64,000 nt of DNA from Patagioenas fasciata (lineage: Eukaryota), in the NCBI RefSeq assembly GCF_037038585.1, contig NC_092556.1:514619-578618 (forward strand), read 5' to 3'. The translations under genes and the position numbers were made by a program. Positions 129-26,554 of the stretch are shown piece by piece (the first letter of the stretch is position 1; each line of letters starts with the position of its first letter). The notes beneath the pieces were generated by a model. It made no database searches and was not told the origin of the DNA. It worked only from the letters and a program-made list of their open reading frames with translations.

Positions 129-220
129 TCAGCCCAGCACGTGGGCCACGGGCACCTTGGCGGGGCGGCCGCCGTGGGGCACGACCAGGGCGTCGGGGTC
201 GGCGTCGTCGGGGGGGAGGC
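129..220 (-). CDS. SPNS1: SPNS1 (spinster homolog 1, MFS transporter) exon 12 (terminal coding exon, includes stop)
   Basis: Minus-strand acceptor ggttgcccccag|GCC (AG = plus 221-222). Phase-1 exon encodes (G)LPPDDADPDALVVPHGGRPAKVPVAHVLG*, with stop TGA at plus 129-131. It aligns with the human SPNS1 C-terminus STDDRIVVPQRGRSTRVPVASVLI (human sequence recalled from memory). Confidence 0.8.
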
Positions 221-237
221 CTGGGGGCAACCAGGGG

Positions 238-1898
238 TGGTTGGTTAATGGGGGCAATGGGGGCAATGGGGACAATGGGGGTGATGGGGCAATGGGGGTA
301 ATGGGGGCAATGGGGGTAATGGGGCAATGGGGGTAATGGGGCAATGGGGGGAATGGGGGCAATGGGGGCAATGGGGGTAATGGGGCAATGGGGGCAATGG
401 GGGCAATGGGGCAATGGGGGTCAATGGGGCAATGGGGGCAATGGGGGTAATGGGGGCAATGGGGGCAATGGGGGCAATGGGGCAATGGGGGTCAATGGGG
501 GCAATGGGGGCAATGGGGTCAATGGGGGTAATGGGGCAATGGGGGTAATGGGGGCAATGGGGGCAATGGGGGCAATGGGGCAATGGGGGGCAATGGGGCA
601 ATGGGGGCAATGGGGGCAATGGGGCAATGGGGGCAATGGGGGCAATGGGGGCAATGGGGCAATGGGGGCAATGGGGCAATGGGGCAATGGGGTCAATGGG
701 GCAATGGGGCAATGGGGGCAATGGGGGTAATGGGGGCAATGGGGCAATGGGGCAATGGGGGCAATGGGGGCAATGGGGGCAATGGGGGCAATGGGGCAAT
801 GGGGACAATGGGGGCAGTGGGGGCAATGGGGGCAATGGGGGCAATGGGGGCAATGGGGCAATGGGGGCAATGGGGGCAATGGGGCAATGGGGGCAATGGG
901 GGCAATGGGGGTAATGGGGCAATGGGGGCAATGGGGCAATGGGGGCAATGGGGGCAATGGGGCAATGGGGGTGATGGGGACAATGGGGGCAATGGGGGCA
1001 ATGGGGTCAATGGGGCCATGGGGACAATGGGGGCAATGGGGTCAATGGGGCAATGGGGGCAATGGGGGCAATGGGGCAATGGGGCAATGGGGTCAATGGG
1101 GCAATGGGGACAATGGGGGCAATGGGGGTAATGGGGCAATGGGGGCAATGGGGGCAATGGGTATCAATGGGGGGCAATGGGGATCAATGGGGGGCAATGG
1201 GGGCAATGGGGGCAATGGGGACAATGGGGGTAATGCGGACAATGGGGACAATGGGGGTAATGGGGACAATGGGGACAATGGGGGTAATGGGGGTAATGGG
1301 GCAGTGGGGGCAATGGGGGCAATGGGGGGCAGTGGGGGCAATGGGGCAATGGGGGCAATGGGGACAATGGGGCAATGGGGGCAATGGGGCAATGGGGCAA
1401 TGGGGGCAATGGGGACAATGGGGCAATGGGGGCAATGGGGCAATGGGGGCAATGGGGGCAATGGGGACAATGGGGGCAATGGGGGTGATGGGGGCAATGG
1501 GGACAATGGGGGTAATGGGGACAATGGGGACAATGGGGGCAATGGGGCAATGGGGCAATGGGGACAATGGGGACAATGGGGGTAATGGGGGTAATGGGGC
1601 AATGGGGGTCAATGGGGCAATGGGGGCAATGAGGCAATGGGGTCAATGGGATCAATGGATCGATGGGGTCAATGGGGATCAATGGGGATCAATGGGGGTC
1701 AATGGGTCAATGGGGGTCAATGGGGATCAATGGGGGGCAATGGGGGCAATGGGGTCAATGGGGGCAATGGGGGCAATGGGGACAATGGGATCAATGGGTC
1801 AATGGGGTCAATGGGGATCAATGGGGATCAATGGGGGTCAATGGGTCATTGGGGTCAATGGGGTCAATGGGGTCAATGGGGTCAATGGGGGGGGGGTG
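238..1898. repeat. Tandem minisatellite (GGGGCAATGG / GGGGTCAATGG family, ~10-11 bp unit) filling SPNS1 intron 11
   Basis: Direct reading shows hundreds of near-identical units of gggggcaatgg, with variants gggacaatgg, ggggtaatgg and ggggtcaatgg. Confidence 0.9.
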
Positions 1899-1914
1899 GT
1901 CACGTGCCCCTCAC

Positions 1915-2083
1915 CTCGCGCCTCCCGCAGCGCTCGCGCGCGGTCCCGCGGGAGCGTGAGGGCGGATCCCAGGAAGGCCCCGCCCCCCAGGGCGGCCACG
2001 AAGGGGCAGAGCAGCAGCGCGCGGCCCAGCGCCTGCGCAGAGCGCAGCCACGAGGGGGCGGGGCCACGCAGCGCGTCACTCAG
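1915..2083 (-). CDS. SPNS1: SPNS1 exon 11
   Basis: Acceptor ccccgccccttcccccag|CTG (AG = plus 2084-2085). Encodes LSDALRGPAPSWLRSAQALGRALLLCPFVAALGGGAFLGSALTLPRDRARALREAR(G). Donor GCGAG|gtgagg. Matches human ...SEFRALQFSLMLCAFVGALGGAAFLGTAIFIEADRRRAQ. Confidence 0.85.
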
Positions 2084-2780
2084 CTGGGGGAAGGGGCGGG
2101 GTCACGGCGGCGCCGGCCAATCAGAGCGCCCCGGGGAGCCCCCCCTCCCACCCGGGTCCTAGCGCCGCCCGCTGGGGCCCTCCCGGTGCCCCCCAGTTCA
2201 TCCCGGTGCCCCCCAGCTCATCCCAGTGCCCCCCAGTCCCTCCCAGTGCTCCCCAGTTCATCCCGGTGCTCCCCAGTTCATCCCAGTGCCCCCCAGCTCA
2301 TCCCAGTGCCCCCCAGTCCCTCCCAGTGCTCCCCAGTTCATCCCGGTGCTCCCCAGTTCATCCCAGTGCCCCCCAGCTCATCCCAGTGCCCCCCAGTCCC
2401 TCCCAGTGCTCCCCAGTTCATCCCGGTGCTCCCCAGTTCATCCCAGTGCCCCCCAGTTCATCCCAGTGCCCCCCAGTCCCTCCCAGTGCTCCCCAGTTCA
2501 TCCCGGTGCCCCCCAGTTTGGTTCCCGGTCCCTCCCAGTGTCCCCCAGTCCCTCCCAGTGCCTCCCAGTCCCTCCCAGTTCAAACCAGTCCATACCATTC
2601 CCAGCAGGTAGGGGCTCCCCACGTCCCCCAGTCCCTCCCAGTCCCCCCAGTTCAAACCAGTCCCTCCCAGTCCATCCCAGTCCGCACCATTCCCAGCAGG
2701 TAGGGGCTCCCCGCGTCCCCCAGTCCCTCCCAATTCAAACCAGTCCCTCCCAGTTCAAACCAGTCCATCCCAGTCCGCAC

Positions 2781-2879
2781 CATTCCCAGCAGGTAGGGGC
2801 TCCCCGCGTCCCCCAGCAGATGCGACGCCCCCACCTGCAGGGCCGAGGCCGTCGAGCGGCGCCAGGGGGGGACCACGGT
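2781..2879 (-). CDS. SPNS1: SPNS1 exon 10
   Basis: Acceptor ccattgtccccag|ACC. Encodes [33 protein letters not shown]. Donor GGAATG|gtgcgg. Matches human [33 protein letters not shown]. Confidence 0.85.
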
Positions 2880-3420
2880 CTGGGGACAATGGGGACAATG
2901 GGGACAATGGGTCAGGGGGGTCCCCAGGGCCCCCCAATGGCACCCAGCGGGGACCACGGTCTGGGGACAATGGGGACAATGGGGACAATGGGTCAGGGGG
3001 GTCCCCAGGGCCCCCCAATGGCACCCAGGGGGGACCACGGTCTGGGGACAATGGGGACAATGGGGACAATGGATCAGGGGGGTCCCCAGGGCCCCCCAAT
3101 GGCACCCAGGGGGGACCACGCTCTGGGGACAATGGGGACAATGGGGACAATGGGTCAGGGGGGTCCCCAGGGCCCCCCAATGGCACCCAGGGGGGACCAC
3201 GGTCTGGGGACAATGGGGACAATGGGGACAATGGGTCAGGGGGGTCCCCAGGGCCCCCCAATGGCACCCAGGGGGGACCACGCTCTGGGGACAATGGGGA
3301 CAATGGGGACAATGGGTCAGGGGGGTCCCCAGGGCCCCCCAATGGCACCCAGGGGGGACCACGCTCTGGGGACAATGGGGACAATGGGGACAATGGGTCA
3401 GGGGGGTCCCCAGGGCCCCC
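2880..3420. repeat. ~60-bp tandem repeat x9 (gggaccacggtctggggacaatggggacaatggggacaatgggtcaggggggtccccagggccccccaatggcacccag) in SPNS1 intron 9
   Basis: Nine near-identical units are read directly. The satellite abuts the exon 10 acceptor. Confidence 0.85.
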
Positions 3421-4276
3421 AATGGCACCCAGGGGCCCACAAGTGTCCCCATTGCCCCCATTGTCCCCATTGCCCCCATTACCCCCATTGCCCCCCCTGT
3501 CCCCATTGCCCCCCATGTCCCCATCACCCCCATTGTCCCCATTATCCCCATTACCCCCACTACCCCCATTGTCCCCATTGTCCCCGTTACCTCCATCACC
3601 TCCATTGTCCCCAATGCCCCCATTGCCCCCATCGCCCCCATTGCCCCCATTGTCCCCATTGCCCCCATCACCCCCAATGTCCCCATCACCCCCAATGCCC
3701 CCCATTGCCCCCATTGCCCCCCAATGCCCCCAATGTCCCCATTGTCCCCAATGTCCCCATTGTCCCCATCACCCCCAATGTCCCCATCACCCCCAATGCC
3801 CCCCATTGTCCCCATTGCCCACCATGTCCCCACTGCCCCCATTGCCCCATTACCCCCAATATCTCCATTGCCCCCCATGTCCCCATTGTCCCCATTGTCC
3901 CCATTACCCCCATCGCCCCCATCACCCCCCATTGTCCCCATCGCCCCCATTGCCCCCCATGTCCCCATCACCTCCATTGTCCCCATTGTCCCCATTGTCC
4001 CCATCACCCCCAATGTCCCCATCGCCCCCATGTCCCCATTGTCCCCATTGCCCCCCATGTCCCCATCACCCCCATTGTCCCCATTGCCCCCCATGTCCCC
4101 ATCACCCCCATCACTCCCATTGCCCCCAATTCCCCATTGCCCCCCATGTCCCCACCGCCCCCATGTCCCCATTGCCCCCATCACCCCCATTGCCCCCATC
4201 ACCCCCATCGTCCCCATCACCCCCATCGCCCCCACTGCCCCCATGTCCCCATTGTCCCCTGTCCCCCTGTCCCCAC

Positions 4277-4342
4277 CAGCAGGATGTCGGCCACGATGGC
4301 CCAGTTCAGGGACAGCAGCGTCTCCCCCACGAAGATGAAAAC
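4277..4342 (-). CDS. SPNS1: SPNS1 exon 9
   Basis: Acceptor cctgtccccag|GTT. Encodes VFIFVGETLLSLNWAIVADILL. Donor CTGCTG|gtgggg. Matches human IFIFIGETLLSMNWAIVADILL. Confidence 0.85.
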
Positions 4343-5092
4343 CTGGGGACAGGGTCACGGGCTCAGGGGTCACGGGGTCACTGGGGTCACGGGGTCACTG
4401 GGGTCACTGTGTCCCCATAACCCCATAAACACTTCAAACCCCATAACCCCCCATACCCCCCCACCCCCATAACCCCAATACCCCCATGACCCCATAGACC
4501 CCATAACCCCCCATACCCCCATGACCCCCATAACCCCCTATGACCCCCATACCCCCATACCCCCAACACCCCCCATACCCCCATGACCCCCATACCCCCA
4601 ACACCCCCCATACCCCCATGACCCCCATACCCCCAACACCCCCCATACCCCCATGCCCCCCATAACCCCCTATGACCCCCATACCCCCAATACCCCCATA
4701 CCCCCATGCCCCCCATAACCCCCTATGACCCCCATACCCCCAACACCCCCCATACCCCCATGACCCCCATAACCCCCTATGACCCCCATACCCCCAACAC
4801 CCCAATACCCCCCATACCCCCATGACCCCATAACCCCCTATGACCCCCATACCCCCATACCCCCATGACCCCCATAACCCCTATGACCCCCATACCCCCA
4901 ACACCCCAATACCCCCCATACCCCCATGACCCCATAACCCCCTATGACCCCCATACCCCCAACACCCCCCATACCCCCATGACCCCCATGACCCCTATGA
5001 CCCCCATACCCCCAACACCCCCCATACCCCCATGACCCCCATGACCCCCATGACCCCCATGACCCCGCGCCCCCCACGTCCCCCCCACTCAC

Positions 5093-5282
5093 GTATGCGG
5101 CGGGGGGGCAGGGCCGGGCGCACAGCAGCGCCAGCAGCAGGCAGGGGGCGGCCCCCAGCACCCCTCCCCCGCACAGCAGGGGGTCCCCCCGCGGGGTCAG
5201 GGGGCGGAGCTTGCGCGACAGCCCCGCCCCCAACCCCACCCCCAGCACCCCCGACACGCACGTCAGCAGCCCGAACAGCAGG
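5093..5282 (-). CDS. SPNS1: SPNS1 exon 8
   Basis: Acceptor cctttgcccccag|C. Encodes (S)[63 protein letters not shown]. Donor GCATAC|gtgagt. Matches human [39 protein letters not shown]... Confidence 0.85.
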
Positions 5283-6897
5283 CTGGGGGCAAAGGGCAAA
5301 GGTCAGGGGGGGTCATGGGGGTCCAGGGGGTTATGGGGGGTTATGGGGTCACGGGGTTATGGGGCTTATAGGGGGTTATAGGGGTCATGGGGGTTATGGA
5401 GGTCATGGGAGTCAGGGGGGTCATGGGGGTCATAGGGGTCGGGGGGTCATGGGGGTCATAGGGGGTCATGGGGATGTGGGGTTATGGGGTCATAGGGGGT
5501 TATGGGGGTCATGGGGGTCATAGGAGTCAGTGGGTCATGGGGGTCATAAGGGGTCATGGGGGTCATAGGGGGTCATAAGGGTCAGGGGGGTTATGGGGGT
5601 CATGGGGGTCAGGGGGTCATGGGGGTCAGGGGGTCATGGGGGTCATAGGGGGTCATGGGGGTCAGGGGGATGTGGGGTTATGGGGGTTATGGGGGTTATG
5701 GGGGTTATGGGGTCATGGGGATGGGGGTTATAGGGTCATGGGGTCATAGGGGTCACGGGTCACCCCATTATCCCAATGTCCCCATTGTCCCCATTGCCCC
5801 CATTGCCCCCATTAACCCCATTGTTCCCATTACCCCATCACCCCCATCACCCCATTGTCCCTGCTGCCCCCATTGTCCCCATTGACCCCATTATCTCAAT
5901 GTCCCCATTGCCCCCATTGTCCCCATCACCCCCATTATCCCCATCACCCCACTGTCCCCTTGACCCCCATTGTCCCCATTGCCTCCATTGGCCCCATTGG
6001 CCCGATTGTCCCATTAACCCATCATCCCCATTACCCCATTGCCCCCATTATCCCATTGCCCCCATTGTCCCATTGTCCCCATTACCCCAATGTCCCCATT
6101 GCTCCCATTGTCCCATTGCCCCCGTCACCCCCATCCCCCCATCACCCCCATTGTCCCCATCACCCCCATTGTCCCATCACCCCCATTGTCTCATCACCCC
6201 CATCACCCCCATTGTCCCCATCCCCCCCATCCCCCCCATTGTCCCCATCACCCCCATTGTCCCATTGTCCCCATCACCCCCATCACCCCCATTCCCCCAT
6301 CACCCCCATTGTCCCATCACCCCCATCGCCCCCATTGTCCCATCCCCCCCATCACCCCCATCCCCCCCATTGTCCCATCCCCCCCATCACCCCCATTGTC
6401 CCCATCCCCCCCATTGTCCCATCACCCCCATCCCCCCCATTCCCCCATCACCCCCATTGTCCCATCACCCCCATTGTCCCATCACCCCCATTGTCCCCAT
6501 CCCCCCATCACCCCCATCACCCCCATTGTCCCCATCCCCCCCATCCCCCCCATTGTCCCCATCACCCCCATTGTCCCATTGTCCCCATCACCCCCATCAC
6601 CCCCATTCCCCCATTGTCCCATTGTCCCATCACCCCCATTGTCCCATCACCCCCATTGTCCCCATCACCCCCATCACCCCCATTGTCCCATCCCCCCCAT
6701 CACCCCCATTGTCCCATTGTCCCCATCACCCCCATTGTCCCCATCCCCCCCATTGTCCCATCACCCCCATTCCCCCATCACCCCCATTGTCCCCATCCCC
6801 CCCATTGTCCCATCACCCCCATTCCCCCATCACCCCCATTGTCCCCATCCCCCCCATTGTCCCCATCCCCCCCATTGTCCCCCCCCCCCCGTGTCAC

Positions 6898-7053
6898 CTC
6901 TCGTCGCCGTGGCAGCGCGGCCCCCGCTGGCAGGGGGGCAGGGCCCCGGTGGCCACGCGGCAGCGGCGCAGGAACGCGGGGGCCCAGAGGGCGAGGGCCC
7001 CGGTGACAAAGGACACGGCGGTGAAGCCCAGCGAGGACAGCACCAGCGTGCGG
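6898..7053 (-). CDS. SPNS1: SPNS1 exon 7
   Basis: Acceptor ccgtgtcccag|C. Encodes (N)RTLVLSSLGFTAVSFVTGALALWAPAFLRRCRVATGALPPCQRGPRCHGDE(S). Donor GACGAGAG|gtgaca. Matches human NPSFVLSSLGFTAVAFVTGSLALWAPAFLLRSRVVLGETPPC. Confidence 0.85.
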
Positions 7054-9412
7054 CTGGGACACGGGGACACCCCCGTCACACCCTGGGGACACCCTGGGGA
7101 CACCCTGGGGACACCCTGGGGACACCCCCGTCACACCCTGGGGACACCCCCGTCACACCCTGGGGACACCCCCGGTGACAAAGGACACGGCGGTGAAGCC
7201 CAGCGAGGACAGCACCAGCGTGCGGCTGGGGACATGGGGACAGCCCCGTCACACCCTAGGGACACCCTGGGGACACCCTGGGGACATGGGGACACCCCTG
7301 TCACACCCCTGGGGACACCCTGGGGACACCCTGGGGACACCCCTGTCACACCCTGGGGACACCCTGGGGACACCCTGGGGACACCCCTGTCACACCCTGG
7401 GGACACCCTGGGGACACCCTGGGGACACCCCCGTCACACCCTGGGGACACCCTGGGGACACCCCCGTCACACCCTGGGGACACCCTGGGGACACCCCTGT
7501 CACACCCCATGGGACATGGGGACACCCCTGGGGACATGGGGACACCCCCTGGGGACACCAATGAAACCCTGGGGACACCGCATGGGACACGGGGACACCC
7601 CTGGGGACACCCCTGTCACACCCCATGGCACCCCATGGGACATGGGGACACCCCTGGGGACATGGGGACACCCCCAGGGACACCCCATGGGACTCGGGGA
7701 CACCCCATAGGGACACAGGGACACCCCCGGGGATGCCCCATTGCACCCCATGGGACACGAGGACACCCCCAGGGACAACCCTGGGGACATGGGGACACCC
7801 CATAGGGACACAGGGACACCCCCAGGGACACCCCATGGCACCCATGGGACACGGGGACACCCCTGGTGACACCCCATTGCACCCCATGGGACATGGGGAC
7901 ACCCCTGGGGACACCGCATGGCACCCCATGGGACACAGGGACACCCCATGGGACTCGGGGACACCCCTGGGGACACGGGGACACCCCTGGGGACACCAAT
8001 GAAACCCTGGGGGTGCCAGGTCTACCCCATGGGGACACCAGGTCTACCCAGGGGGACCTGTCCCCATGTCCCCCCATGTCCCCATGTCCCCCATGTCCCC
8101 CATTGTCCCCATATCCCCCAATCCCCCCATAGCCCCCAATCCCCCCATATCCCCATAGCCCCCAATGTCCTCACATCCCCATTGTCCCCATATCCCCCAA
8201 TGTCCCCATGTCCCCCCATAGTCCCCCATTGTCCCCGTATCCCCCAATATCCCCAATCCCCCCACATCCCCCCAATGTCCCCACATCCCCCCATGTCCCC
8301 CATTGTCCCCAATGTCCCCACATCCCCCCATGTCCCCCATTGTCCCCAATGTCCCCACATCCCCCCATGTCCCCCATTGTCCCCAATGTCCCCACATCCC
8401 CCCATGTCCCCATAGCCCCCAATGTCCCCATATCCCCCCATATCCCCAATGTCCCCAATGTCCCCCCATGTCCCCCAATCCCCCCATATCCCCCAATGTC
8501 CCCATGTCCCCCATTGTCCCCATGTCCCCATTATCCCCATAGCCCCCAATGTCCCCACATCCCCCCCTGTCCCCCATTGTCCCCATATCGCCTCATGTCC
8601 CCCTATCCCCCAATGTCCCCAATGTCCCCCATTGTCCCCATATCCCCCATTGTCCCCAATCCCCCCACATCCCCCATTGTCCCCATATCCCCCATTGTCC
8701 CCACATCCCCCCATGCCCCCCAATGTCCCCACACCCCCCAATGTCCCCCAATGTCCCCATTGTCCCCAATGTCCCCACACCCCCCAATGTCCCCATTGTC
8801 CCCATTGTCCCCATTGCCCCCATTGTCCCCAATGTCCCCAATGTCCCCAATGTCCCCATTGCCCCCATTGCCCCCAATGTCCCCAATGTCCCCATTGTCC
8901 CCAATGTCCCCAATGTCCCCACACCCCCCAATGTCCCCACACCCCCCATTGTCCCCAATGTCCCCATTGTCCCCAATGTCCCCACACCCCCCAATCCCCC
9001 CACATCCCCCAATGTCCCTCAATCCCCTCAATGTCCCCCATGTCCCCCATTGTCCCCAATCCCCCCATGCCCCCCATTGTCCCCACATCCCCCCATGCCC
9101 CCCATTGCCCCCATTGCCCCATTGCCCCCATTGTCCCCAATGTCCCCACACCTCCCAATGTCCCCATTGTCCCCACTGTCCCCACTGTCCCCAATGTCCC
9201 CATTGTCCCCAATGTCCCCAATGTCCCCAATGTCCCCCATTGTCCCCAATGTCCCCACACCCCCCAATGTCCCCATTGTCCCCACTGTCCCCACTGTCCC
9301 CAATGTCCCCATTGTCCCCGATGTCCCCAATGTCCCCACACCCCCCATTGCCCCCATTGTCCCCATTGTCCCCAATGTCCCCCAATGTCCCCAGTGTCCC
9401 CCCTGTCCTCAC

Positions 9413-9555
9413 TTGGTGGCCAGGCGGCGCAGGTCGCTGGCCCAGTGCGGGTGGGGGAGGGGCGTGGCGGGGGGCAGCTCCAGGCCCCCCCGGGGGGGGT
9501 CGCTCACCAGCGTCACCAACAGCGCCAGGGCCACCAACCCCAGCACCGGGGTCAC
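9413..9555 (-). CDS. SPNS1: SPNS1 exon 6
   Basis: Acceptor cccgtgtccccag|GTG. Encodes VTPVLGLVALALLVTLVSDPPRGGLELPPATPLPHPHWASDLRALAT(N). Donor ACCAA|gtgagg. Matches human VTPGLGVVAVLLLFLVVREPPRGAVERHSDLPPLNPTSWWADLRALAR. Confidence 0.8.
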
Positions 9556-10654
9556 CTGGGGACACGGGGGGGTCACATGGGGTCACATGGGGGGGTCACA
9601 TGGGGACGGGGGGGGCACGTGGGGGGGGGGCACGTGGGGGGGGGTCACCTGGGGACACGGGGGGGTCACCTGGGGTCACATGGGGGGGTCACATGGGGAC
9701 GGGGGGGGCACGTGGGGGGGGGTCACCTGGGGACACGGGGGGGTCACCTGGGGGGGTCACATGGGGACGGGGGGGGCACGTGGGGGGGTCACCTGGGTCA
9801 TCTGGGGACATGGGGGGGGCACGTGGGGTCACATGGGGGGGTCACATGGGGACGGGGGGGGCACGTGGGGGGGGGGTCACCTGGGGTCACCTGGGGACAC
9901 GGGGGGGGTCACATGGGGATGGGGGGGGCACGTGGGGGGGTCACCTGGGGTCACCTGGGGACATGGGGGGGGGCACGTGGGGTCACATGGGGGGGTCACC
10001 TGGGGCCACCTGGGGTCACCTGGGGACACGGGGGGGCACGTGGGGACGGGGGGGGCACGTGGGGGGGTCACCTGGGGTCATCTGGGGACATGGGGGGGGG
10101 CACGTGGGGTCACATGGGGGGGGTCACCTGGGGACATGGGGGGGTCACCTGGGGGCACCTGGGGATGGGGGGGGGGGGCACATGGGGGGGTCACCTGGGG
10201 TCACCTGGGGACATGGGGGGGCACGTGGGGGCACATGGGGACGGGGGGGGCACGTGGGGGGGGCACGTGGGGACTTGGCGGGGTCACCTGGGGTCACATG
10301 GGGACCCTGTTGAGGACACTGGGGGGGTTTGGGGACCCTGCTGGGGACACTGGGGACCCTTTTGGGGACATTGGGGGGGTTTGGGGACCCTGTTGGGGAC
10401 ACTGGGGACCCTTTTGGGGACATTGGGGGGGTTTGGGGACCCTGTTGGGGACACTGGGGGGTTTGGGGTCACTGTTGGGGACACTGATGGGGACACTGGG
10501 GACCCTGTTGGGGACACTGGGGGGGTTTGGGGACCCTGTTGGGGACCCTGTTGGGGTCACTGATGGGGACACTGGGGACACTGGGGGGGTTTGGGGACAC
10601 TGATGGGGACACTGGGGACATTGGGGCCACTGGGGCCGTGGGTCCCGGGCTCAC

Positions 10655-10721
10655 CCTGAGGGCCCAGCGCCAGTCGGAGGCCACGTCCTTCACCTTGGCC
10701 CCGATGATGTAACCGAGCCCG
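10655..10721 (-). CDS. SPNS1: SPNS1 exon 5
   Basis: Acceptor catgtccccag|C. Encodes (S)GLGYIIGAKVKDVASDWRWALR. Donor CTCAGG|gtgagc. Matches human [23 protein letters not shown]. Confidence 0.85.
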
Positions 10722-13134
10722 CTGGGGACATGGGGACAGCATGGGGACATCAGCGGGGACATGGGGACATCAGCGGGGACATGGGGACATCAGCGGGGAC
10801 ATGGGGACATTGGGGACATGGGGACATTGGGGGCAATGGGGACATGGGGACATTGGGGGCAATGGGGACATCAGCGGGGACATGGGGACATTGGGGACAT
10901 TGGGGACATTGGGGACATGGGGACAATGGGGACATTGGGGACACCATGGGGACATCAGTGGGGACACGGGGACCCCACAATCCCCACCCCCGTGTCCCCA
11001 TGTCCCCATCACCCCCATGGCCCCCAACGTCCCCATAGCCCCCATTGTCCCCAATGTCCCCACTGATGTCCCCATCACCCCCCCATGTCCCCACAACCCC
11101 CAATGTTCCCCCATGTCCCCACATCCCCCCACAACCCCCAATGTCCCTCTGTCCCTCAATGTCCCCATGTCCCCCCACATCCCCAATGTCCCCATTGCCC
11201 CCAATGTCCCATCACCGCCATTGTCCCCAATGTCCCCAATGTCCCCATCACCCCCATCACCCCCATTGTCCCCACTGCCCCCATTGTCCCCATTGCCCCC
11301 AATGCCCCCATTGTGCCCAATACCCCCCACCGCCCCCATTGACCCCCATATTCCCCCAATGTCCCCATTGTTCCCGTCACCCCCACCACCCCCAATGTCC
11401 CCAATGCCCCCAATGTCCCCCCTCCCCCATCACCCCCATTGTCCCCATCACCCCATCCCCCCATTGCCCCCACTGCCCCCATCCCCCCCCACCCCCATCC
11501 CCCCCATCCCTCTCACCGCCCCATCCCCCCATTGCCCCCCATCCCCCCCAATGTCCCCACGTCCCCCATCCCCCCCCCATCCCCCCATCCCCCCCACTGC
11601 CCCCATTGCCCCCCCCACCCCCATCCCCCCCCCCACCCCCAATGCCCCCATTGTCCCCATCCCCCCCATCACCCCCATCCCCCCATTGTCCCCATCCCCC
11701 CCACCACCCCCATCCCCCCATTGCCCCCATTGCCCCCATTGTCCCCCATTACCCCCCCACCCCCATCCCCCCATCCCCCCCACTGCCCCCATCCCCCCCC
11801 CACCCCCATCCCCCCCATTGCCCCCATTGCCCCCCATCCCCCCCACTGCCCCCATCCCTCCCCCACCCCCATCCCCCCATTGCCCCCATTGCCCCCCATC
11901 CCCCCCACTGCCCCCATCCCCCCCACCACCCCCATCCCCCCATTGCCCCCATTGTCCCCCATTACCCCCCCACCCCCATCCCCCCCAATGTCCCCATTGT
12001 CCCCATTGCCCCATCCCCCCCCACCCCCATCCCCCCAATGTCCCCAATGCCCCCATCCCCCCATTGCCCCCAATGTTCCCATTGCCCCCCATTACCCCCC
12101 CACCCCCATCCCCCCCAATGTCCCCATGTCCCCCATCCCCCCCCACCCCCATCCCCCCATTACCCCCAATGTCCCCATTGCCCCCTCACCCCCAATGTCC
12201 TCATCCCCCCATTGTCCCCATCCCCCCAATGTCCCCATTGCCCCCAATGTCCCCATCCCCCTCCCCACCCCCATCTCCCCCATTGTTCCCAATGTCCCCA
12301 TCCCCCCCATCCCCCTCCCCCTCCCCCCCATCCCCCCCATTGCACCCCCCACCCCCATCCCCCCATCCCCCCCATTGCCCCCATCCCCCTCAATGCCCCC
12401 ATTGTCCCCATCCCCCCCCCCACCCCCATCCCCCCCAATGCCCCCAATGTCCCCATGCCCCCATCACTCCCATCCCCCCATCCCCCCCATTGCCCCCCCC
12501 ACCCCCATCCCCCCAATGCCCCCAATGTCCCCATCCCCCCCCATCCCCCTCCCCCTCCCCCCCATCCCCCCCATTGCACCCCCCACCCCCATCCCCCCAT
12601 TGTCCCCATTGCCCCCCATTACCCCCCCACCCCCATCCTGCCCAATGTCCCCATCCCCCCCCACCCCCATCCCCCCATTACCCCCAACGTCCCCATTGCC
12701 CCCTCACCCCCATTGCCCCCATCCCCCCCCAACCCCCCCAATGTCCCCCTCCCCCCCCATCACTCCCATCCCCCCATTGCCCCCATTGCCCCCCATTGCC
12801 CCCCACCCCTATCCCCCCCATTGCTCCCAATGTCCCCATCCCCCCCCCCCTCCCCCCCATCCCCCCATTGCCCCCCATCCCCCCCAATGTCCCCACGTCC
12901 CCCATCCCCCCACCACCCCCATCCCCCCCCCCACCCCCATTGCCCCCATTGTCCCCATCCCCCCACCCCCCCCATCCCCCCACCCCCCCCACCGCCCCAT
13001 CCCCCCACCGCCCCCATCCCCCCCATCCCCCCATCCCCCCCATTACCCCCAATGTCCCCCCCCATCCCCACCCCCCCACTGTCCCCATCCCCCCCACTGT
13101 CCCCCATCCCCCCCCCCAATGTCCCCGCTGTCAC

Positions 13135-13286
13135 CTCCCCAGCGGGACCCCCACGTAGAAGGCGGCGAGCGCGGGGGTGCGGGCGGGGCCGGCGCTGACG
13201 TCAGCGATGAGGGCGGGGGCCAGCGTGCTGAACCCCCCCTCCCCCACCCCCACCAGCGCCCGGCCCAGCAGCAGCAGCCAGAACCC
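13135..13286 (-). CDS. SPNS1: SPNS1 exon 4
   Basis: Acceptor ccgccctttgcgcag|GGG. Encodes GFWLLLLGRALVGVGEGGFSTLAPALIADVSAGPARTPALAAFYVGVPLG(S). Donor GGGGAG|gtgaca. Matches human [51 protein letters not shown]. Confidence 0.85.
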
Positions 13287-14745
13287 CTGCGCAAAGGGCG
13301 GGGTCAGCGGGGGCACGGGGGCACGGGGTCACAGGGGGTCATGGGGTCACAGGGGTCATGGGGTCATAGGGGGCGTGGGGGTCACAGGGGGTCATGGGGT
13401 CACAGGGGCTCACAGGGGGTCACAGGGGGTCAGGGGGTCACAGGGGGTCATGGGGTCATAGGGGGGCGTGGGGTCACAGGGGGCATGGGGTCATATGGGG
13501 TCACGGGGGTCATGGGGTCACAGGGGGTCACAGGGGGTCATGGGGTCACAGGGGGTCAGGGGGTCACAGGGGCTCACAGGGGGTGTGGGGTCACAGGGGG
13601 TCACAGGGGTCATGGGGTCACAGGGGGGCGTGGGGTCACAGGGGGTCATGAGGTCACAGGGGGTCACAGGGGGTCATGGGGGGCAGGGGTCACCGGGGTC
13701 ACGGGGTCAGGGGCTCACAGGGGGTCACAGGGGGTCACGGGGGGCAGGGGTCACACGGGTCATGGGGGCAGGGGGTCACAGGGGGTCATGGGGTCACAGG
13801 GGGTCAGGGGGTCACAGGGGGTCATGGGGTCACAGGGGGTCAGGGGGTCACAGGGGGTCACGGGGGGCAGGGGTCACAGGGGACATGGGGTCAAGGGGTC
13901 ACAGGGGGGCACGGGGTCACAGGGGGGCATGGGGTCATATGGGGTCACGGGGGTCATGGGGTCAGGGGGTCAAAGGGGGTCAGGGGATCACAGGGGTCAT
14001 GGGGTCATGGGGTCACAGGGGGGCGTGGGGTCACAGGGGGTCATGAGGTCACAGGGGGTCATGGGGTCACAGGGGGTCATGGGGTCACAGGGGGTCACAG
14101 GGGTCACGGTCAGGGGGTCACAGGGGGTCAGGGGGTCACAGGGGGGTGTGGGGTCACAGGGGGTCACAGGGGGTCATGGGGTCATAGGGGGGCACGGGGT
14201 CACATAGGGTCACAGGGGGTCATGGGGTCACAGGGTGTCAGGGGGTCACAGGGGGTCACCGGGGTCACGGGGTCAGGGGGTCACACCCACCCCACAGCCC
14301 CCCATGTCCTACCCCATTGTGCCCCACACCCACCCCATACCCACCCCATGTCCCCCCATGTCCCGCCCCACTGTGCCCCACACCCACCCCACACCCACCC
14401 CACAGCCCCCCATGTTCCGCCCCATTGTGCCCCACACCCGCCCCACACCCACCCCACAGCCCCCCATGTCCCGCCCCACTGTGCCCCACACCCACCCCAC
14501 ACCCACCCCACAGCCCCCCATGTCCCGCCCCACTGTGCCCCACATCTGCCCCACACCCACCCCATAGCCCCCCATGTCCCGCCCCATTGTGCCCCACACC
14601 CACCCCACAGCCCCCCATGTCCCCCCATGTCCCGCCCCACTGTGCCCCACATCTGCCCCACACCCACCCCATAGCCCCCCATGTCCCCCCATGTCCCGCC
14701 CCACCGTGCCCCACATCTGCCCCACACCCGCCCCACACCCACCTG

Positions 14746-14882
14746 GGGGGGCACGAAGCTGCTGGCCAGGGTGGCCCCGCCCCATAGGGCGCTGGCCCCA
14801 CAGAGCAGGAGCTTCCGGTTCCAGCGATCGCCCAGGAACCCGAAGAGGGGGGCGAGCAGGAGGTAACTGAGGATGAACACTG
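14746..14882 (-). CDS. SPNS1: SPNS1 exon 3
   Basis: Acceptor ccacggattctcag|TG, which lies inside the last unit of the adjacent 46-bp satellite. Encodes (V)FILSYLLLAPLFGFLGDRWNRKLLLCGASALWGGATLASSFVPPQ. Donor CCCCAG|gtgggt. Matches human [44 protein letters not shown]. Confidence 0.8.
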
Positions 14883-17300
14883 AGAATCCGTGGGTCAGAC
14901 CCACACGTGTGGGGCACGAACCCACCCAGCAGCCATGGGTCAGACCCACACGTGTGGGGCAGGAACCGACACTGAGAATCCATGGGTCAGACCCACACGT
15001 GTGGGGCACAAACCCACCCAGCAGCCATGGGTCAGACCCACACGTGTGGGGCAGGAACCCACCCAGCAGCCATGGGTCAGACCCACACGTGTGGGGCAGG
15101 AACCCACCCAGCAGCCATGGGTCAGACCCACACGTGTGGGGCAGGAACCCAAACCCAGCATCCATGGGTCAGACCCACACGTGTGGGGCAGGAACCCACC
15201 CAGCAGCCATGGGTCAGACCCACACGTGTGGGGCAGGAACCGACAGTGAGCAGCTATGGGTCAGACCCACACGTGTGGGGCAGGAACCCAAACCCAGCAT
15301 CTATGGGTCAGACCCACACGTGTGGGGCAGGAACCAACACTGAGAATCCATGGGTCAGACCCACACGTGTGGGGCAGGAACCCAAACCCAGCATCCATGG
15401 GTCAGACCCACACGTGTGGGGCAGGAACCCAAACCCAGCAGCCATGGGTCAGACCCACACGTGTGGGGCAGGAACCGACACTGAGAATCCATGGGTCAGA
15501 CCCACACGTGTGGGGCAGGAACCCAAACCCAGCATCCATGGGTCAGACCCACACGTGTGGGGCAGGAACCCACCCAGCATCTATGGGTCAGACCCACACA
15601 TGTGGGGCAGGAACCAACACTGAGAATCCATGGGTCAGACCCACACGTGTGGGGCAGGAACCCAAACCCAGCAGCCATGGGTCAGACCCACACGTGTGGG
15701 GCAGGAACCAACCCAGCAGCCATGGGTCAGACCCACACGTGTGGGGCAGGAACCCACCCAGCAGCCATGGGTCAGACCCACACGTGTGGGGCAGGAACCG
15801 ACAGTGAGCAGCTATGGGTCAGACCCACACGTGTGGGGCAGGAACCCAAACCCAGCATCCATGGGTCAGACCCACACGTGTGGGGCAGGAACCCAAACCC
15901 AGCATCCATGGGTCAGACCCACACGTGTGGGGCAGGAACCCAAACCCAGCAGCCATGGGTCAGACCCACACGTGTGGGGCAGGAACCGACACTGAGAATC
16001 CATGGGTCAGACCCACACGTGTGGGGCAGGAACCCAAACCCAGCATCCATGGGTCAGACCCACACGTGTGGGGCAGGAACCAACACTGAGAATCCATGGG
16101 TCAGACCCACACGTGTGGGGCACGAACCCACCCAGCAGCCATGGGTCAGACCCACACGTGTGGGGCAGGAACCCAAACCCAGCATCCATGGGTCAGACCC
16201 ACACGTGTGGGGCAGGAACCAAGACTGAGAATCCATGGGTCAGACCCACACGTGTGGGGCAGGAACCAACACTGAGAATCCATGGGTCAGACCCACACGT
16301 GTGGGGCAGGAACCGACACTGAGCAGCTATGGGTCAGACCCACACGTGTGGGGCAGCAACCCAAACCCAGCATCTATGGGTCAGACCCACACGTGTGGGG
16401 CAGGAACCCACCCAGCAGCCATGGGTCAGACCCACACGTGTGGGGCAGGAACCGACAGTGAGCAGCTATGGGTCAGACCCACACGTGTGGGGCAGGAACC
16501 CACCCAGCAGCCATGGGTCAGACCCACACGTGTGGGGCAGGAACCGACAGTGAGTAGCTATGGGTCAGACCCACACGTGTGGGGCAGGAACCCAAACCCA
16601 GCAGCCATGGGTCAGACCCACACGTGTGGGGCAGGAACCGACAGTGAGCAGCTATGGGTCAGACCCACACGTGTGGGGCAGGAACCCACCCAGCAGCCAT
16701 GGGTCAGACCCACACGTGTGGGGCAGGAACCCACCCAGCATCTATGGGTCAGACCCACACGTGTGGGGCAGGAACCCACCCAGCATCTATGGGTCAGACC
16801 CACACGTGTGGGGCAGGAACCGACAGTGAGCAGCTATGGGTCAGACCCACACGTGTGGGGCAGGAACCGACCCAGCAGCCATGGGTCAGACCCACACGTG
16901 TGGGGCAGGAACCCACCCAGCAGCCATGGGTCAGACCCACACATGTGGGGCAGGAACCAACACTGAGAATCCATGGGTCAGACCCACACGTGTGGGGCAG
17001 CAACCCAAACCCAGCATCTATGGGTCAGACCCACACATGTGGGGCAGGAACCAACACTGAGAATCCATGGGTCAGACCCACACGTGTGGGGCAGGAACCA
17101 ACCCAGCATCCATGGGTCAGACCCACACGTGTGGGGCAGGAACCAACACTGAGAGTGCGGGGGTCAGACCCACACGTGTGGGGCAGGAACCCACCCAGCA
17201 TCTATGGGTCAGACCCACACGTGTGGGGCAGGAACCCACCCAGCATCTATGGGTCAGACCCACACGTGTGGGGCAGGAACCAACACTGAGCAGCTACGGG
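14883..17300. repeat. 46-bp palindromic E-box satellite, ~52 copies (cccacacgtgtggggcaggaacccacccagcagccatgggtcagac), in SPNS1 intron 2
   Basis: Every unit contains the perfect 16-bp palindrome CCCCACACGTGTGGGG with a central CACGTG E-box. The array is followed at 17300-17620 by a related ~60-bp repeat carrying the same palindrome. Confidence 0.9.
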
Positions 17301-17619
17301 TCAGACCCACACGTGTGGGGCACTATGGGGCAGAGCTGTCTGCAGGAGCTCTATGGGGGTGATGTGTGGGTCAGCCCCACACGTGTGGGGCGCTATGGGG
17401 CAGAGCTGTCTGCAGGAGCTCTATGGGGGTGATGTGTGGGTCAGCCCCACACGTGTGGGGCGCTATGGGGCAGACCTGTCTGCAGGAGCTCTATGGGGGG
17501 GTGATGTGTGGGTCAGCCCCACACGTGTGGGGCGCTATGGGGCAGAGCTGTCTGCAGGAGCTCTATGGGGGGGTGATGTGTGGGTCAGCCCCACACGTGT
17601 GGGGCGCTATGGGGCAGAC

Positions 17620-17685
17620 CTGTCTGCAGGAGCCCGGATTTCCCGTCATCGATGCCGAAATAATCCTCAATATCCGGGAGAACAC
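17620..17685 (-). CDS. SPNS1: SPNS1 exon 2
   Basis: Acceptor gtctgtgccccccag|GT. Encodes (G)VLPDIEDYFGIDDGKSGLLQT(V). Donor CAGACAG|gtctgc (weak). Matches human GVLPDIEQFFNIGDSSSGLIQT. Confidence 0.8.
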
Positions 17686-18463
17686 CTGGGGGGCACAGAC
17701 CCATAAGTGACCCATAAGTGACCCATAAGTGACCCATAAGTGACCCATAAGTGACCCACAGCGACCCATAGAGACCCATAACCGACCAAAAATTGACCCA
17801 CAAGTGACCCATGAATCTCCCATAGTGACCCCCTGACCCATAAGTGACCCACAGCAACCCCCTAACTGACCCATAGTGACCCATAAGAGACCCATAGTGA
17901 CCCATAAGTAACCCAAAGTGACCCATAACTGACCCATAAGTGACCCATAAGTGACCCAAAGTGACCCATAGCAACCCCATAAGTGACACATAGCGACCCA
18001 TAAGTGACCCATAAGTGACCCAAAGTGACCCATAGCAACCCCATAACTGACCCATAGCAACCCCATAAGTGACCCATAGAGACCCATAAGTGACCCCATA
18101 GCAACCCCATAAGTGACCCATAGTGACCCATAAGTGACCCAAAGTGACCCCATAAGCGACCCATAAGTGACCCATAAGTGACCCATAACTGGCCCTTAGT
18201 GACCCATAAGTGACCTATAGAGACCCCCGTAACTGACCCATAGAGACCCATAAGTGACCCCGTTTTGCCCCCCCTGCCCCACATCTCCCCCCACATCTCC
18301 CCACACCCCGCCCCCCATCTGCCCCATATCTGCCCCACATCCCACCCCACATCTCCCCCATTCTCTCCCCATATCCCACCCCATTTACTCCCCACATCTC
18401 CCCACACCCCGCCCCACACCCCGACCCCCACATCTCCCCACATCCTGCCCCACATCTCCCCAC

Positions 18464-18659
18464 CAGCCAGTGTGAACCGGTCCATGTAGTTGAGCAGGTT
18501 GACGTAGCACAGCACGGCCAGCGTGCGCCGGGGCGCCGTGGGGCCGCTATGGGGCGCTGTGGGGCCGCTATGGGGCGCCGTGGGGCTGGGGGGGGCGCTG
18601 TGGGGCAGCCCCTCCCCCCCCGTGTCGTCCGCGCGGTGAAGGAGCGGCCCCGACGCCAT
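18464..18659 (-). CDS. SPNS1: SPNS1 exon 1 (start codon)
   Basis: ATG is the reverse complement of plus 18657-18659, in the context ccccATGG. Encodes MASGPLLHRADDTGGEGLPHSAPPSPTAPHSGPTAPHSGPTAPRRTLAVLCYVNLLNYMDRFTLA(G). Donor CTGGCTG|gtgggg. Matches human ...RSALIVAVLCYINLLNYMDRFTVAG. There is no in-frame stop upstream, so the start codon is inferred from homology and context. Confidence 0.7.
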
Positions 18660-19430
18660 GGGGCAGCCTGGGGGGAGACCCACAGGGACCACGGGGTGAC
18701 CCATAGGGACCCATAGGGACCCACAGAGTGACCCATAGGGACCATGGGGTGACCCATAGGGACCCATAGGGACCCATAGAGACCATGGAGTGACCCATAG
18801 GGACCATGGGGTGACCCACAGGGACCCATAGAGTGACCCATAGGGACCATGGGGTGACCCACAGGGACCCATAGAGTGACCCATAGGGACCATGGGGTGA
18901 CCCATAGGGACCCATAGGGACCCATAGGGACCATGGGGTGACCCATAGGGATACATAGGGACCCATAGAGTGACCCATAGGGACCATGGGGTGACCCATA
19001 GGGACCCATAGAGACCATGGAGTGACCCATAGGGACCCATAGAGTGACCCATAGGGACCATGGGGTGACCCATAGGGACCCATAAAGACCCACAGAGTTA
19101 CCCATAGGGACCCATAGGGACCCATAGAGTGACCCATAGGGACCATGGGGTGACCCACAGGGACACATAGGGACCCATAGGGACCCACAGAGTTACCCAT
19201 AGGGACCCATAGGGACCCATAGAGACCATAGAGACCCATAGGGACCATAGAGACCCACAGAGACCCATAGGGACCCATAGAGACCCATAGAGTGACCCAT
19301 AGAGACCGATAGAGACCCATAGAGACCCATAGAGTGACCCATAGAGACCGATAGAGACCCATAGAGACCCATAGAGTGACCCATAGAGACCCATAGAGAC
19401 CATAGAGACTCTAGAGACCCAAATTCCCCC
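18660..19430. repeat. Tandem satellite (gggacccatagggaccatggggtgacccatag family) between the SPNS1 start codon and the promoter
   Basis: Direct reading. It probably lies within the SPNS1 5'UTR or an intron, because promoter-like unique sequence only begins at ~19430. Confidence 0.8.
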
Positions 19431-19558
19431 CCCCTTCCCCCGCCCCTCCCCCCACCCCTCTCCCCCCCTCCTCTCCCCCATTTTTGCCCCAAACCCGCGG
19501 TTTTCACCCCAATTTTCCCCCTTTCCCGCCCTCACCGGCCGCCCCGGCCCAGCCGCGG

Positions 19559-19606
19559 CTCACGTGACCTCGCGCTCACGTGACCACCCCCCCTCCACAC
19601 GTGACC
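19559..19606. promoter_or_regulatory. Cluster of three CACGTG E-boxes (two are TCACGTGAC CLEAR-like motifs)
   Basis: gctCACGTGAcctcgcgctCACGTGAccaccccccctccaCACGTGAccgc. The lysosomal CLEAR consensus GTCACGTGAC is matched 9/10 by the first two. Confidence 0.55.
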
Positions 19607-19869
19607 GCCGCTTCCGAGAAGAAGCCGGAAGTGGCGTCCACTCCCCCCCCCCCCCCCCCGCCGCTTTACGAGAGAAATGGTGGCGATTTGGGGCCAAATT
19701 CGGGCCGTTCTGCCCCAAAATGCGACGGGGGGAGGGGAAACAATGGGGGAAATTGGCGGGAAATTCACCAGAGCTGCCTAAAAGAGCCCAAATGGGTCCC
19801 CCCCGAACTCCTGGGTCCGTCCCTCCCCCCGCCCCCCACCGCCGCCCCCGTCCATGGGGCGGGAGGAGG

Positions 19870-25376: not shown

Positions 25377-25502
25377 GTGACCACGCCCCCCTTCAGCCCA
25401 TTGCCCAATGAGCTGCTGGCCCCGCCCGACGGGCCTCGCCCCCCCAGGCCCCGCCCCCCCGGCCCCGCCCGGCGCAGCCGAAGCTCCAACAGGCGCCTGC
25501 AG
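25377..25502 (+). CDS. INO80E: INO80E exon 6
   Basis: Acceptor ccatgccctttccag|GTG. Encodes VTTPPFSPLPNELLAPPDGPRPPRPRPPGPARRSRSSNRRLQ. Donor CTGCAG|gtccgg. Matches human ...[33 protein letters not shown]. Confidence 0.7.
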
Positions 25503-26554
25503 GTCCGGGGGGCGCTATGGGGCGCTATGGGGTGCTATGGGGCACTATGGGGTGCTATGGGGCGCTATGGGGCGCTATGGGGTGCTATGGGGCGCTATGG
25601 GGCGGTGTGGGGCACAGGGGGGCTGGGGTCCTCTATGGGGCCAGGGGGCACTTGGGGGGCTGGGGGGGGGGTCAATATGTGGGGTTGGGGGGGAGTTATG
25701 GGGCACTTGGGGGTCGATGTGTGGGGCTCGGGGGTCTGGGAGGGTCACTTGTGGGTCACTTATGGGTCAGTGTGTGGGTCTGGGGGGTCACTTATGGGTC
25801 TGGGAGGGTCACTTGTGGGTCACTTATGGGTCAATGTGTGGGTCGGGGGTCACTTATGGGTCTGGAGGGTCACTTATGGGTCACTTATGGGTCAACGTGT
25901 GGGTCTGGGGGGGGGGTCACTTATGGGTCTGGGAGGGTCACTTGTGGGTCACTTATGGGTCAATGTGTGGGTTTGTGGTCACTTATGGGTCTGGGAGGGT
26001 CACTTATGGGTCAACGTGTGGGTCTGGGGGGGTCACTTATGGGTCAATGTGTGGGTCCATGGGATCACTTATGGGTCTGGGAGGGTCAGTTATGGGTCTG
26101 AGAGGGTCACTTGTGGGTCAATGTGTGGGTCGGGGGTCACTTATGGGTCAAGGTGTGGGTCTGGGGGGTCTGGGAGGGTCACTTATGGGTCACTTATGGG
26201 TCAGTGTGTGGGTCGGGGGTCACTTATGGGTCTGGGAGGGTCACTTATGGGTCACTTATGGGTCAATGTGTGGGTCTGGGGTCACTTATGGGTCAATGTG
26301 TGGGTCTGGGGTCACTTATGGGTCAACGTGTGGGTCTGGGGGGGTCACTTGCGGGTGAATGTGTGGGTCGGGGATCACTTATGGGTCACCTATGGGTCGA
26401 CGTGTGGGTCTGGGGGGGTCACTTATGGGTCAATGTGTGGGTCTATGGTCACTTACGGGTCCCTTATGTCCCCCCAGCCCCCCCCCGCGCCCCCGTTCCC
26501 CCTCCCCCCGGCCCCTCCCCCGCTGCCCGGTGCCCTCCCCCGGCGGCTGCTGAG

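Follow-up and report, generated by a model that had tools for sequence, protein, structure and literature searches.

The SPNS1 gene and its ATG-containing exon

Within a 64,000-nucleotide stretch of the genome of the pigeon Patagioenas fasciata (contig NC_092556.1, positions 514,619 to 578,618 of the forward strand; hereafter the window), the ATG-containing exon of SPNS1 carries a short tandem repeat that is translated in frame. The gene lies on the minus strand and comprises 12 exons with an open reading frame (ORF) of 510 amino acids; splice sites were placed by hand and all introns are GT-AG. The exon search began from a human SPNS1 sequence, and conclusions about mammals rest on database sequences. 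The spliced model (GC 0.75, GC3 0.93) matches the P. fasciata protein XP_071657412.1 (spinster homolog 1, isoform X1) with 100% identity; that record probably derives from the same assembly as the window, and a single Patagioenas sequence was compared. Isoform X2 differs from X1 solely by skipping exon 10. Pfam assigns residues 51-411 to MFS_1 (1.9e-37), and the top PDB match is the SPNS1 construct 9boi (1.5e-175), with SPNS2 at ~1e-130. Judged from these sequence matches, all of which agree with the original prediction on the identity of the gene, it is SPNS1, a lysosomal transporter of the major facilitator superfamily (MFS), and is closer to SPNS1 than to SPNS2. We take SPNS1 (spinster homolog 1) to be an MFS lysosomal lysophospholipid transporter with 12 transmembrane (TM) helices.

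The features of the coding exon, identified by translation, Tandem Repeats Finder (TRF), blastn, codon listing, DNA alignment and pattern search, are as follows.

18464-18659, minus strand: coding part of the ATG-containing SPNS1 exon (196 nt; translation; ATG at 18659-18657, donor GT at 18463-18462)
18530-18606, minus strand: entire 10/11-nt periodic tract, with six exact CCCCAYRGCG units (TRF period 10, 7.5 copies; pattern search)
18576-18605, minus strand: first, older 30-bp unit, encoding PHSAPPSPTA (codon listing, DNA alignment)
18530-18586, minus strand: 21-bp tandem repeat, 2.7 copies of CCCCATAGCGG + CCCCACRGCG (TRF, 94% matches, score 107; blastn self-matches)

The coding repeat is built of 10/11-nt units

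Translation of 18659-18464 gives MASGPLLHRADDTGGEGLPHSAPPSPTAPHSGPTAPHSGPTAPRRTLAVLCYVNLLNYMDRFTLA. In codon order, the tract consists of one 30-bp unit (CCC CAC AGC GCC CCC CCC AGC CCC ACG GCG), two copies of CCC CAT AGC GGC CCC ACR GCG (PHSGPTA), and then CCC CGG CGC, such that the product of the 21-bp repeat is PHSGPTA twice followed by P(RR). The original prediction had quoted a 44-mer encoding a translated, in-frame repeat of the TAPHSGP type; this sequence is present at 18575-18532 of the minus strand, and TRF describes the repeat as 21 bp x 2.7. The 30-bp unit corresponds to the one that is exactly duplicated in another pigeon, Caloenas.

Autocorrelation of the coding tract, scored against codon shuffles, gives a period-21 signal (lag 21, z=+4.7) and two shorter periods (lag 10, z=+3.7; lag 11, z=+3.4). 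Because neither 10 nor 11 is divisible by three, repetition of amino acids cannot cause the shorter periods, and the DNA of the tract is therefore built of satellite-type 10/11-nt units. The coding tracts of Caloenas (z=+2.6) and of the kakapo, Strigops (z=+3.3), are likewise periodic at lag 10.

The 21-bp repeat lies 70-130 nt within the exon from either splice site, and it changes the protein while leaving the ORF intact. Its units are at least 10 bp long, are arranged head to tail and in frame, and vary in copy number between species, as in a coding minisatellite. Coding minisatellites, or variable number tandem repeats (VNTRs), are found in disordered protein regions such as those encoded by the 48-bp repeat of human DRD4 exon 3 and the 54-bp repeat of PER3. 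The pigeon tract is like members of this class in having in-frame units of tens of base pairs, lineage-variable copies and an unstructured location, and unlike them in that its unit is a composite of a 10/11-nt satellite-type motif whose length is not a multiple of three.

The repeat lies in an unstructured N-terminal tail

The tract corresponds to residues 19-45, and the alignment to the solved SPNS1 structure starts at residue 46. An AlphaFold2 model was computed from a 31-sequence alignment using the database protein P0038, which has an identical N-terminus, in place of the spliced model. Its mean predicted local distance difference test (pLDDT) score is 72.8, with values <50 at residues 1-37 and a first helix from residue 42. 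According to this prediction, the repeat is located in an unstructured N-terminal tail ahead of the first TM helix (TM1), which bears out the earlier statement that it precedes TM1 (PDB alignment from 46, MFS_1 from 51, helix from 42). From MFS architecture, the tail is expected to be cytosolic.

Three PTAP motifs occur in this tail, at residues 26-29, 33-36 and 40-43. P(T/S)AP is the late-domain consensus to which the UEV domain of TSG101, in ESCRT-I, binds, and the repeat could have been selected for multiplying this motif on the cytosolic side, in which case it would affect sorting or turnover of the transporter. The pigeon protein resembles P(T/S)AP late domains in presenting three exact tetrapeptides on a predicted cytosolic tail; the tail, unstructured in the model, would be accessible, and Caloenas, parrots and Grus carry the motif too, likewise in multiplied form. 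It differs from such late domains in lacking conservation among birds. Raptors and cuckoo have PTAL in place of PTAP, the woodpecker, passerines, ratites and a transcript-derived bird sequence (P0045) have no such motif, and it is absent in other vertebrates. In addition, tracts rich in Pro, Thr and Ala readily yield PTAP by chance. We consider selection for PTAP very improbable. Searching the literature for sorting motifs described at the SPNS1 N-terminus gave nothing specific.

The tract varies among birds in unit, register and copy number

We compared N-termini from two protein searches, covering 17 bird species and many outgroups, together with genomic DNA from seven birds; the cuckoo and zebra finch repeats are described from protein sequence. 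No such repeat occurs among the orthologues retrieved from mammals, marsupials, crocodilians, turtles, tuatara, lizards, frog and fish, whose tails end ..TG[IV]S..RA ahead of TM1. The alignment thus confines the repeat to birds, with no TAPHSGP duplication in orthologues from outside them, and the absence of the repeat from the human N-terminus, as stated in the original prediction, is matched in the primate, marsupial, reptile, amphibian and fish sequences. The state of the tract in each bird lineage is listed below.

Patagioenas: one 30-bp unit, PHSAPPSPTA, then PHSGPTA x2
Caloenas: exact 30-bp duplicate, PHSDPPGPTA x2
Parrots: SCPTAPHSD[GA], 2.5-4.5 copies
Accipiter and Haliaeetus: RPTALPHGV x2
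Cuculus (cuckoo): three copies
Grus (crane), Rhea and Struthio (ostrich): single copy, in crane SCPTAPHGIS
P0045 (transcript-derived): single copy
Woodpecker: none
Zonotrichia and Chamaea (passerines with an N-terminus): no repeat
Taeniopygia guttata (zebra finch, P0067): unrelated 7-aa repeat, ATPPAGK x3, at the same place in the tail

Among these lineages, units measure 21 or 30 bp and copy numbers range from 1 to 4.5. Both unit lengths keep the frame: Patagioenas has units of 21 bp (11+10), whereas those of Caloenas, parrots, raptors and cuckoo measure 30 bp (3x10). When the DNA of five species (the pigeons, kakapo, eagle and crane) is aligned, it contains an invariant core of two 10-mers, GCCCCACRGC-GCCCCAYRGC, surrounded by indels of 3, 9, 15 and 18 nt. 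As the core is shared, it must be older than the divergence of pigeons, parrots, eagles and cranes. Around it, the expansions vary in unit, register and number even inside the Columbidae. An ancient core combined with lineage-specific units identifies the tract as a long-standing hot spot that has evolved where it lies, and not as a recent invasion.

The zebra finch case suggests that this site in the tail is prone to in-frame expansion regardless of motif.

The flanking arrays are inverted relative to the coding motif

Tandem arrays flank the ATG-containing exon on both sides.

18698-19421: upstream tandem array, unit GACCCATAGG on the plus strand and CCTATGGGTC on the sense strand of the gene (TRF, strand counts)
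18277-18461: downstream-intron array, CCCCACATCTCC (TRF)
17698-18260: downstream-intron array, GACCCATAAGT (TRF)

The upstream array has periods of 10, 22, 43 and 84 bp and is inverted relative to the coding motif. Likewise, the arrays in the intron 3' of the ATG exon (17698-18463) are C-rich on the plus strand and G-rich on the sense strand, the inverse of the coding motif. In local alignments, the 57-nt repeat scores 11 in gene orientation and 23 inverted against the upstream array, and 5 and 24, respectively, against the downstream-intron arrays. Shuffled queries score 8.3 +/- 1.1 against the upstream array, with a maximum of 11. No word of at least 11 nt is common to the tract and either flanking array on either strand. 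A pre-mRNA hairpin pairing the G-rich intronic array with the C-rich coding tract would have no more than 7 bp of complementarity per unit in this species.

According to the original prediction, the upstream satellite of ~770 bp shares its motif with the coding repeat and apparently extended past the start codon into the ORF by multiples of 3 nt. Several observations appear to favour this. Array and tract have a 7-mer in common (CCCATAG or CCCACAG), the inverted alignment score of 23 is far above that of the shuffles, and the two elements are a mere ~75-110 nt apart. The motif family is indeed real (CCCCAYRGCG), but the adjacent array carries it on the opposite strand: within 18668-19430, CCCATAG has 43 plus-strand and no minus-strand occurrences, as against 0 and 2 in the coding sequence (CDS), and the score in gene orientation is at the level of the shuffles. 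In between lie ~60 nt conserved across birds (cccccag/gctgcccc, the ATG and the MASGP.L.RADDTGG codons), and this interval of acceptor-like site, ATG and 17 codons is unique sequence. The pyrimidine run, cag/gctgcccc, the ATG and the codons that follow are conserved in all eight bird loci examined. Moreover, the crane already has the core without a duplicated coding unit, and the kakapo shows the same inverted arrangement of array and tract. Given the strand opposition, the lack of long shared words and the conserved spacer, we reject the idea that the array itself spilled into the reading frame, and attach only a few percent of belief to it. A coding repeat that is an extension of the 18698-19421 array was therefore discarded as a candidate, being neither co-oriented nor continuous with it. 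The upstream array is a separate, oppositely oriented and probably intronic product of the same regional instability, and not the donor.

A probable 5'UTR intron separates the likely promoter from the start codon

The upstream array most probably lies in an intron of the 5' untranslated region (5'UTR), as judged from splice motifs, conservation in eight bird loci and the transcripts of another bird.

18668-19535, minus strand: probable 868-nt 5'UTR intron holding the upstream array (donor CGGCCG/GTGAGG, last exon base 19536; acceptor ccccccag/GCTGCCCCATG, that is cag/GCTGCCCC, first exon base 18667)
19561-66, 19577-82 and 19598-603, minus strand: three GTCACGTG E-boxes of the CLEAR/TFEB type (motif scan)

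The acceptor-like site is conserved 8-9 nt before the ATG in the eight bird loci. In four transcript-like contigs of another bird, a 5'UTR of 68-155 nt with E-boxes runs straight into gcagccccATG; these contigs have no upstream ATG, and the homologous tract is in frame in them. Because the 5'UTR is joined to the ATG in these homologous transcripts, the start codon is supported, and hence the translation of the tract. All eight bird loci have 3-5 GTCACGTG boxes 580-2340 nt 5' of the ATG, with arrays in between. We presume these boxes to be CLEAR elements (consensus GTCACGTGAC), and they likely mark the promoter and first non-coding exon of a lysosomal gene, a reading drawn from motifs and position. 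An ETS-like motif, CCGGAAGT, is found near 19626 on the minus strand, within the region of the probable non-coding first exon and 5'UTR intron (18667-19640).

The repeat could be an artefact, either of translation, if the true start were Met59 and the tract remained untranslated, or of assembly, if the repeat number were in error. Database models starting MDRFT exist for Columba livia (P0040), Ammospiza (P0048) and Lonchura (P0049). However, Met59 falls within TM1 of the MFS core, and the upstream MASGP.L.RADD segment aligns with reptile and mammal N-termini. The transcript contigs of the other bird start at the homologous ATG with the tract in frame, and the NCBI model has the same start. As for assembly, the 57-bp repeat is much shorter than a read, and similar repeats occur in independent assemblies of other species. 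An artefact of either kind is the least probable of the explanations considered here.

The upstream array is open in the SPNS1 phase for 146 codons (18660-19097) and contains many in-frame ATGs. The Caloenas nicobarica protein P0039 (667 aa) translates the corresponding array (2952-3456 of locus L004) as an N-terminal extension, 'SMGRIYGSLWV...', of ~150 aa; this extension is spurious. An open, ATG-rich array has thus already been mistranslated in one pigeon gene model, which gives the present analysis some value for annotation. The putative 5'UTR intron, if retained, would likewise add an array-encoded N-terminus.

A co-oriented motif family is dispersed through the window

The window contains 42 instances of CCCCAYRGCG where 1.56 are expected, and 0 of 100 shuffles reached this count. 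All but one of the occurrences (41/42) are on the minus strand, the same as the CDS, and six of them fall inside the coding tract. Satellite 10-mers are 6-8 times as frequent in the N-tail region as in the average 77-nt CDS window. The minus-strand bias spans the 64 kb, across arrays of different genes or intergenic stretches, and the conserved start-codon context CCCC ATG GCG (18654-18663) itself matches the motif. Two arrays of the family that share the orientation of the coding repeat are the following.

25507-25605, minus strand: pure (CCCCATAGCG)n array, GGGGCGCTAT on the plus strand (sequence, blastn, alignment against shuffles)
17298-17633, minus strand: 72-bp array where the next intron begins, with GCCCCATAGCGCCCCACA in every unit (TRF, k-mer and pattern matches, blastn)

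The array at 25.5 kb, in which the motif matches span 25513-25602, is the non-coding sequence most closely related to the coding repeat and has the same orientation, with 89-93% identity over 30-36 nt (blastn). The 57-nt repeat scores 39 of 57 against it, compared with 12.8 +/- 2.0 for shuffles. In the 72-bp array, GCCCCATAGCGCCCCACA shares the orientation of the coding repeat and differs by one indel from the coding GCCCCATAGCGGCCCCACA (matches at 17391, 17461, 17533 and 17605), and CCCCAYRGCG occurs within 17391-17614. Further arrays of the family are located at 23.2-23.7 kb and 57-63 kb (pattern matches at 23.4, 57-62 and 63.7 kb). Together with the two listed above, they are the satellites nearest in kinship to the coding tract.

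The coding variant of the motif also covaries with that of the arrays across bird loci. Where the CDS has CAT AGC, the arrays contain 103, 89 and 201 copies of CCCATAG against 3, 5 and 4 of CCCACGG (Patagioenas, Caloenas and Strigops, respectively). Where it has CAC GGC, CCCACGG is found 96 and 26 times (Haliaeetus and Grus), although in Grus CCCACAG is about as common, with 30 copies. This sample amounts to approximately four independent lineages. The covariation may reflect either a shared, lineage-specific mutational regime or an exchange of sequence with the satellites. Within the CDS of pigeons and parrots alike, CAC AGC in the first unit gives way to CAT AGC in the later ones. Inverted copies of a species' own coding variant are present in its flanking arrays, as an exact 18-mer in kakapo and as 22/23 in crane.

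Together with the co-oriented match at 25.5 kb and the shared orientation of the family, these patterns are what one might expect if the tract had been seeded by, or repeatedly converted from, dispersed CCCCATAGCG-family arrays through ectopic gene conversion or template switching and had evolved in concert with the satellite variant. Several points speak against this. The matches are at most about two units long, so that no conversion tract can be demonstrated, and in a cross-species matrix the CDS tract shows no preference for the arrays of its own species over those of others, indicating generic family resemblance. Codons ending in A or T, such as CAT and ACA, which we sought as a sign of imported satellite, are not enriched in the tract (3/27 vs 30/483, p=0.41). 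With about four lineages, CpG decay that is specific to a lineage and acts on both compartments could also produce the covariation. We regard conversion from the arrays as unlikely, although it is the most serious of the competing explanations.

The SPNS1 introns show repeat instability of the kind described for dot chromosomes

On the template (plus) strand, the coding tract forms one unbroken 76-nt G-quadruplex (G4) motif (18530-18605, regex scan), the longest in any SPNS1 exon. In the SPNS1 introns (129-18463), 94% of bases are in 10-mers that occur at least three times within the same intron, and TRF reports arrays in every intron. The unit family differs from intron to intron, mostly comprising 9-11-nt motifs with C4 or G4 runs, and G4 motifs cover 42% of the introns on the sense strand and 26% on the template strand.

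Exon edges are also found within arrays. Exon 10 (2879-2781, minus strand) has a tandem array around each of its ends (window positions 2555-3435). An 81-bp array of 7 copies with 98% matches repeats the exon 10 acceptor together with 14 nt from the beginning of the exon, and its exact copies end at 2885, 3047 and 3209; as 81 nt equal 27 codons, this array is open in the frame of the exon across all copies. A 92-bp array copies the 3' end of exon 10 and its donor, at 2801, 2708 and 2616, and this is the exon that isoform X2 skips. In exon 7, the 5' part (CTGGTGCTGTCCTCGCTGGGCTTCACC, TLVLSSLGFTAVSFVTG; 7020-7046) is duplicated 172 nt upstream in the preceding intron, at 7218-7192.

On avian dot chromosomes, introns fill with local tandem repeats and exon edges are copied into introns, phenomena described as 'sequence stuttering' and 'exon stuttering', respectively (PMC12954441, Genome Biol Evol 2026). 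In that study, the repeat blocks are confined to introns and coding regions stay intact; chicken SPNS1, on dot chromosome 38 (chr38), appears in the supplementary per-gene exon-stuttering plots (PMC12954441). The window is similar in that its introns are 94% locally repeated and the edges of exons 10 and 7 are copied into introns. The pigeon tandem repeat is alike in unit type but lies inside a coding exon, in frame, and alters the protein, and it is thus not stuttering as defined there (PMC12954441).

In a second study, intronic minisatellites of dot chromosomes have units that are multiples of 10-11 bp, and G4 motifs are found preferentially on the template strand within CDS but on the coding strand within introns (bioRxiv 10.1101/2025.10.17.683159). 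The SPNS1 tract agrees with this in its sub-period of 10/11 nt and in strand, with the exon G4 motif on the template strand and two flanking arrays that are G-rich on the coding strand. It departs from the non-coding minisatellites and G4 statistics reported there (bioRxiv 10.1101/2025.10.17.683159) in being translated. SPNS1 introns 5 and 11 break the reported genome-wide asymmetry, as they are C-rich on the sense strand.

A probable fast-evolving coding minisatellite

We put roughly three chances in four on the tract being a small coding minisatellite that evolves fast but in frame, within the unstructured N-terminal tail of SPNS1 in birds, with a history of change in situ. Its building block is the 10/11-nt C-run unit CCCCAYRGCG on the sense strand, giving GGGG runs and a G4 motif on the template strand; units of this type compose the intronic minisatellites of avian dot chromosomes. 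The alignment shows that the ancestor of pigeons, parrots, eagles and cranes already had two units (PTA-PH[GS]). Slippage or unequal exchange on this structure-prone repeat may then repeatedly have duplicated larger blocks around the core. A 10-nt step breaks the frame, and composites divisible by three would survive; selection against products whose length is not a multiple of three would thus explain why the observed units are 21 and 30 bp. We hypothesize that the tract merely spaces the conserved P-x-L-x-x-ADD motif from TM1, tolerating changes in length, and that it probably has no function of its own.

Some points weigh against this interpretation. Polymorphism is the hallmark of an active minisatellite, and the variation described here is between species. 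An ancestral array with concerted evolution and losses is not fully separable from independent expansion, and the neutrality of the tract is an assumption. The tract also holds three PTAP motifs. Finally, the coding variant follows the dominant array variant of its locus, less clearly in crane, and an isolated history in situ does not predict this.

In a more speculative extension, which we think improbable but worth stating, the 10-11-bp instability of dot chromosomes also acts in exons, in the form of frame-preserving composites, and exchange with non-coding arrays keeps the coding copy at the satellite variant of the lineage. If so, satellites would directly write the protein sequence of a conserved housekeeping gene.

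The class of coding minisatellites and the regional instability are known; what is new is an instance in an SPNS1 exon that uses a 10/11-nt unit. If the interpretation in situ is correct, it provides a concrete case of avian dot-chromosome repeat instability reaching protein-coding sequence, where exons were reported to be spared. The locus would also represent a small natural experiment in which G4-prone slippage (mutation) is set against the reading frame (selection). As a spacer within a disordered tail, the tract is probably of no consequence for SPNS1 biology.

Neighbouring features

The stretch at 25380-25610 is promoter-like, with GC-box and CCAAT motifs, and ends ...cctgcag/gtccgg, after which the (GGGGCGCTAT)n array follows directly. 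From its sequence, the stretch resembles a first exon and the beginning of an intron in a neighbouring gene on the plus strand. NFATC2IP and LAT are the side genes expected in a conserved SPNS1 neighbourhood; at other bird SPNS1 loci, the neighbouring genes encode a Rad60-SLD domain (Grus), LAT (Struthio), and syntaxin or EF-hand domains (kakapo).

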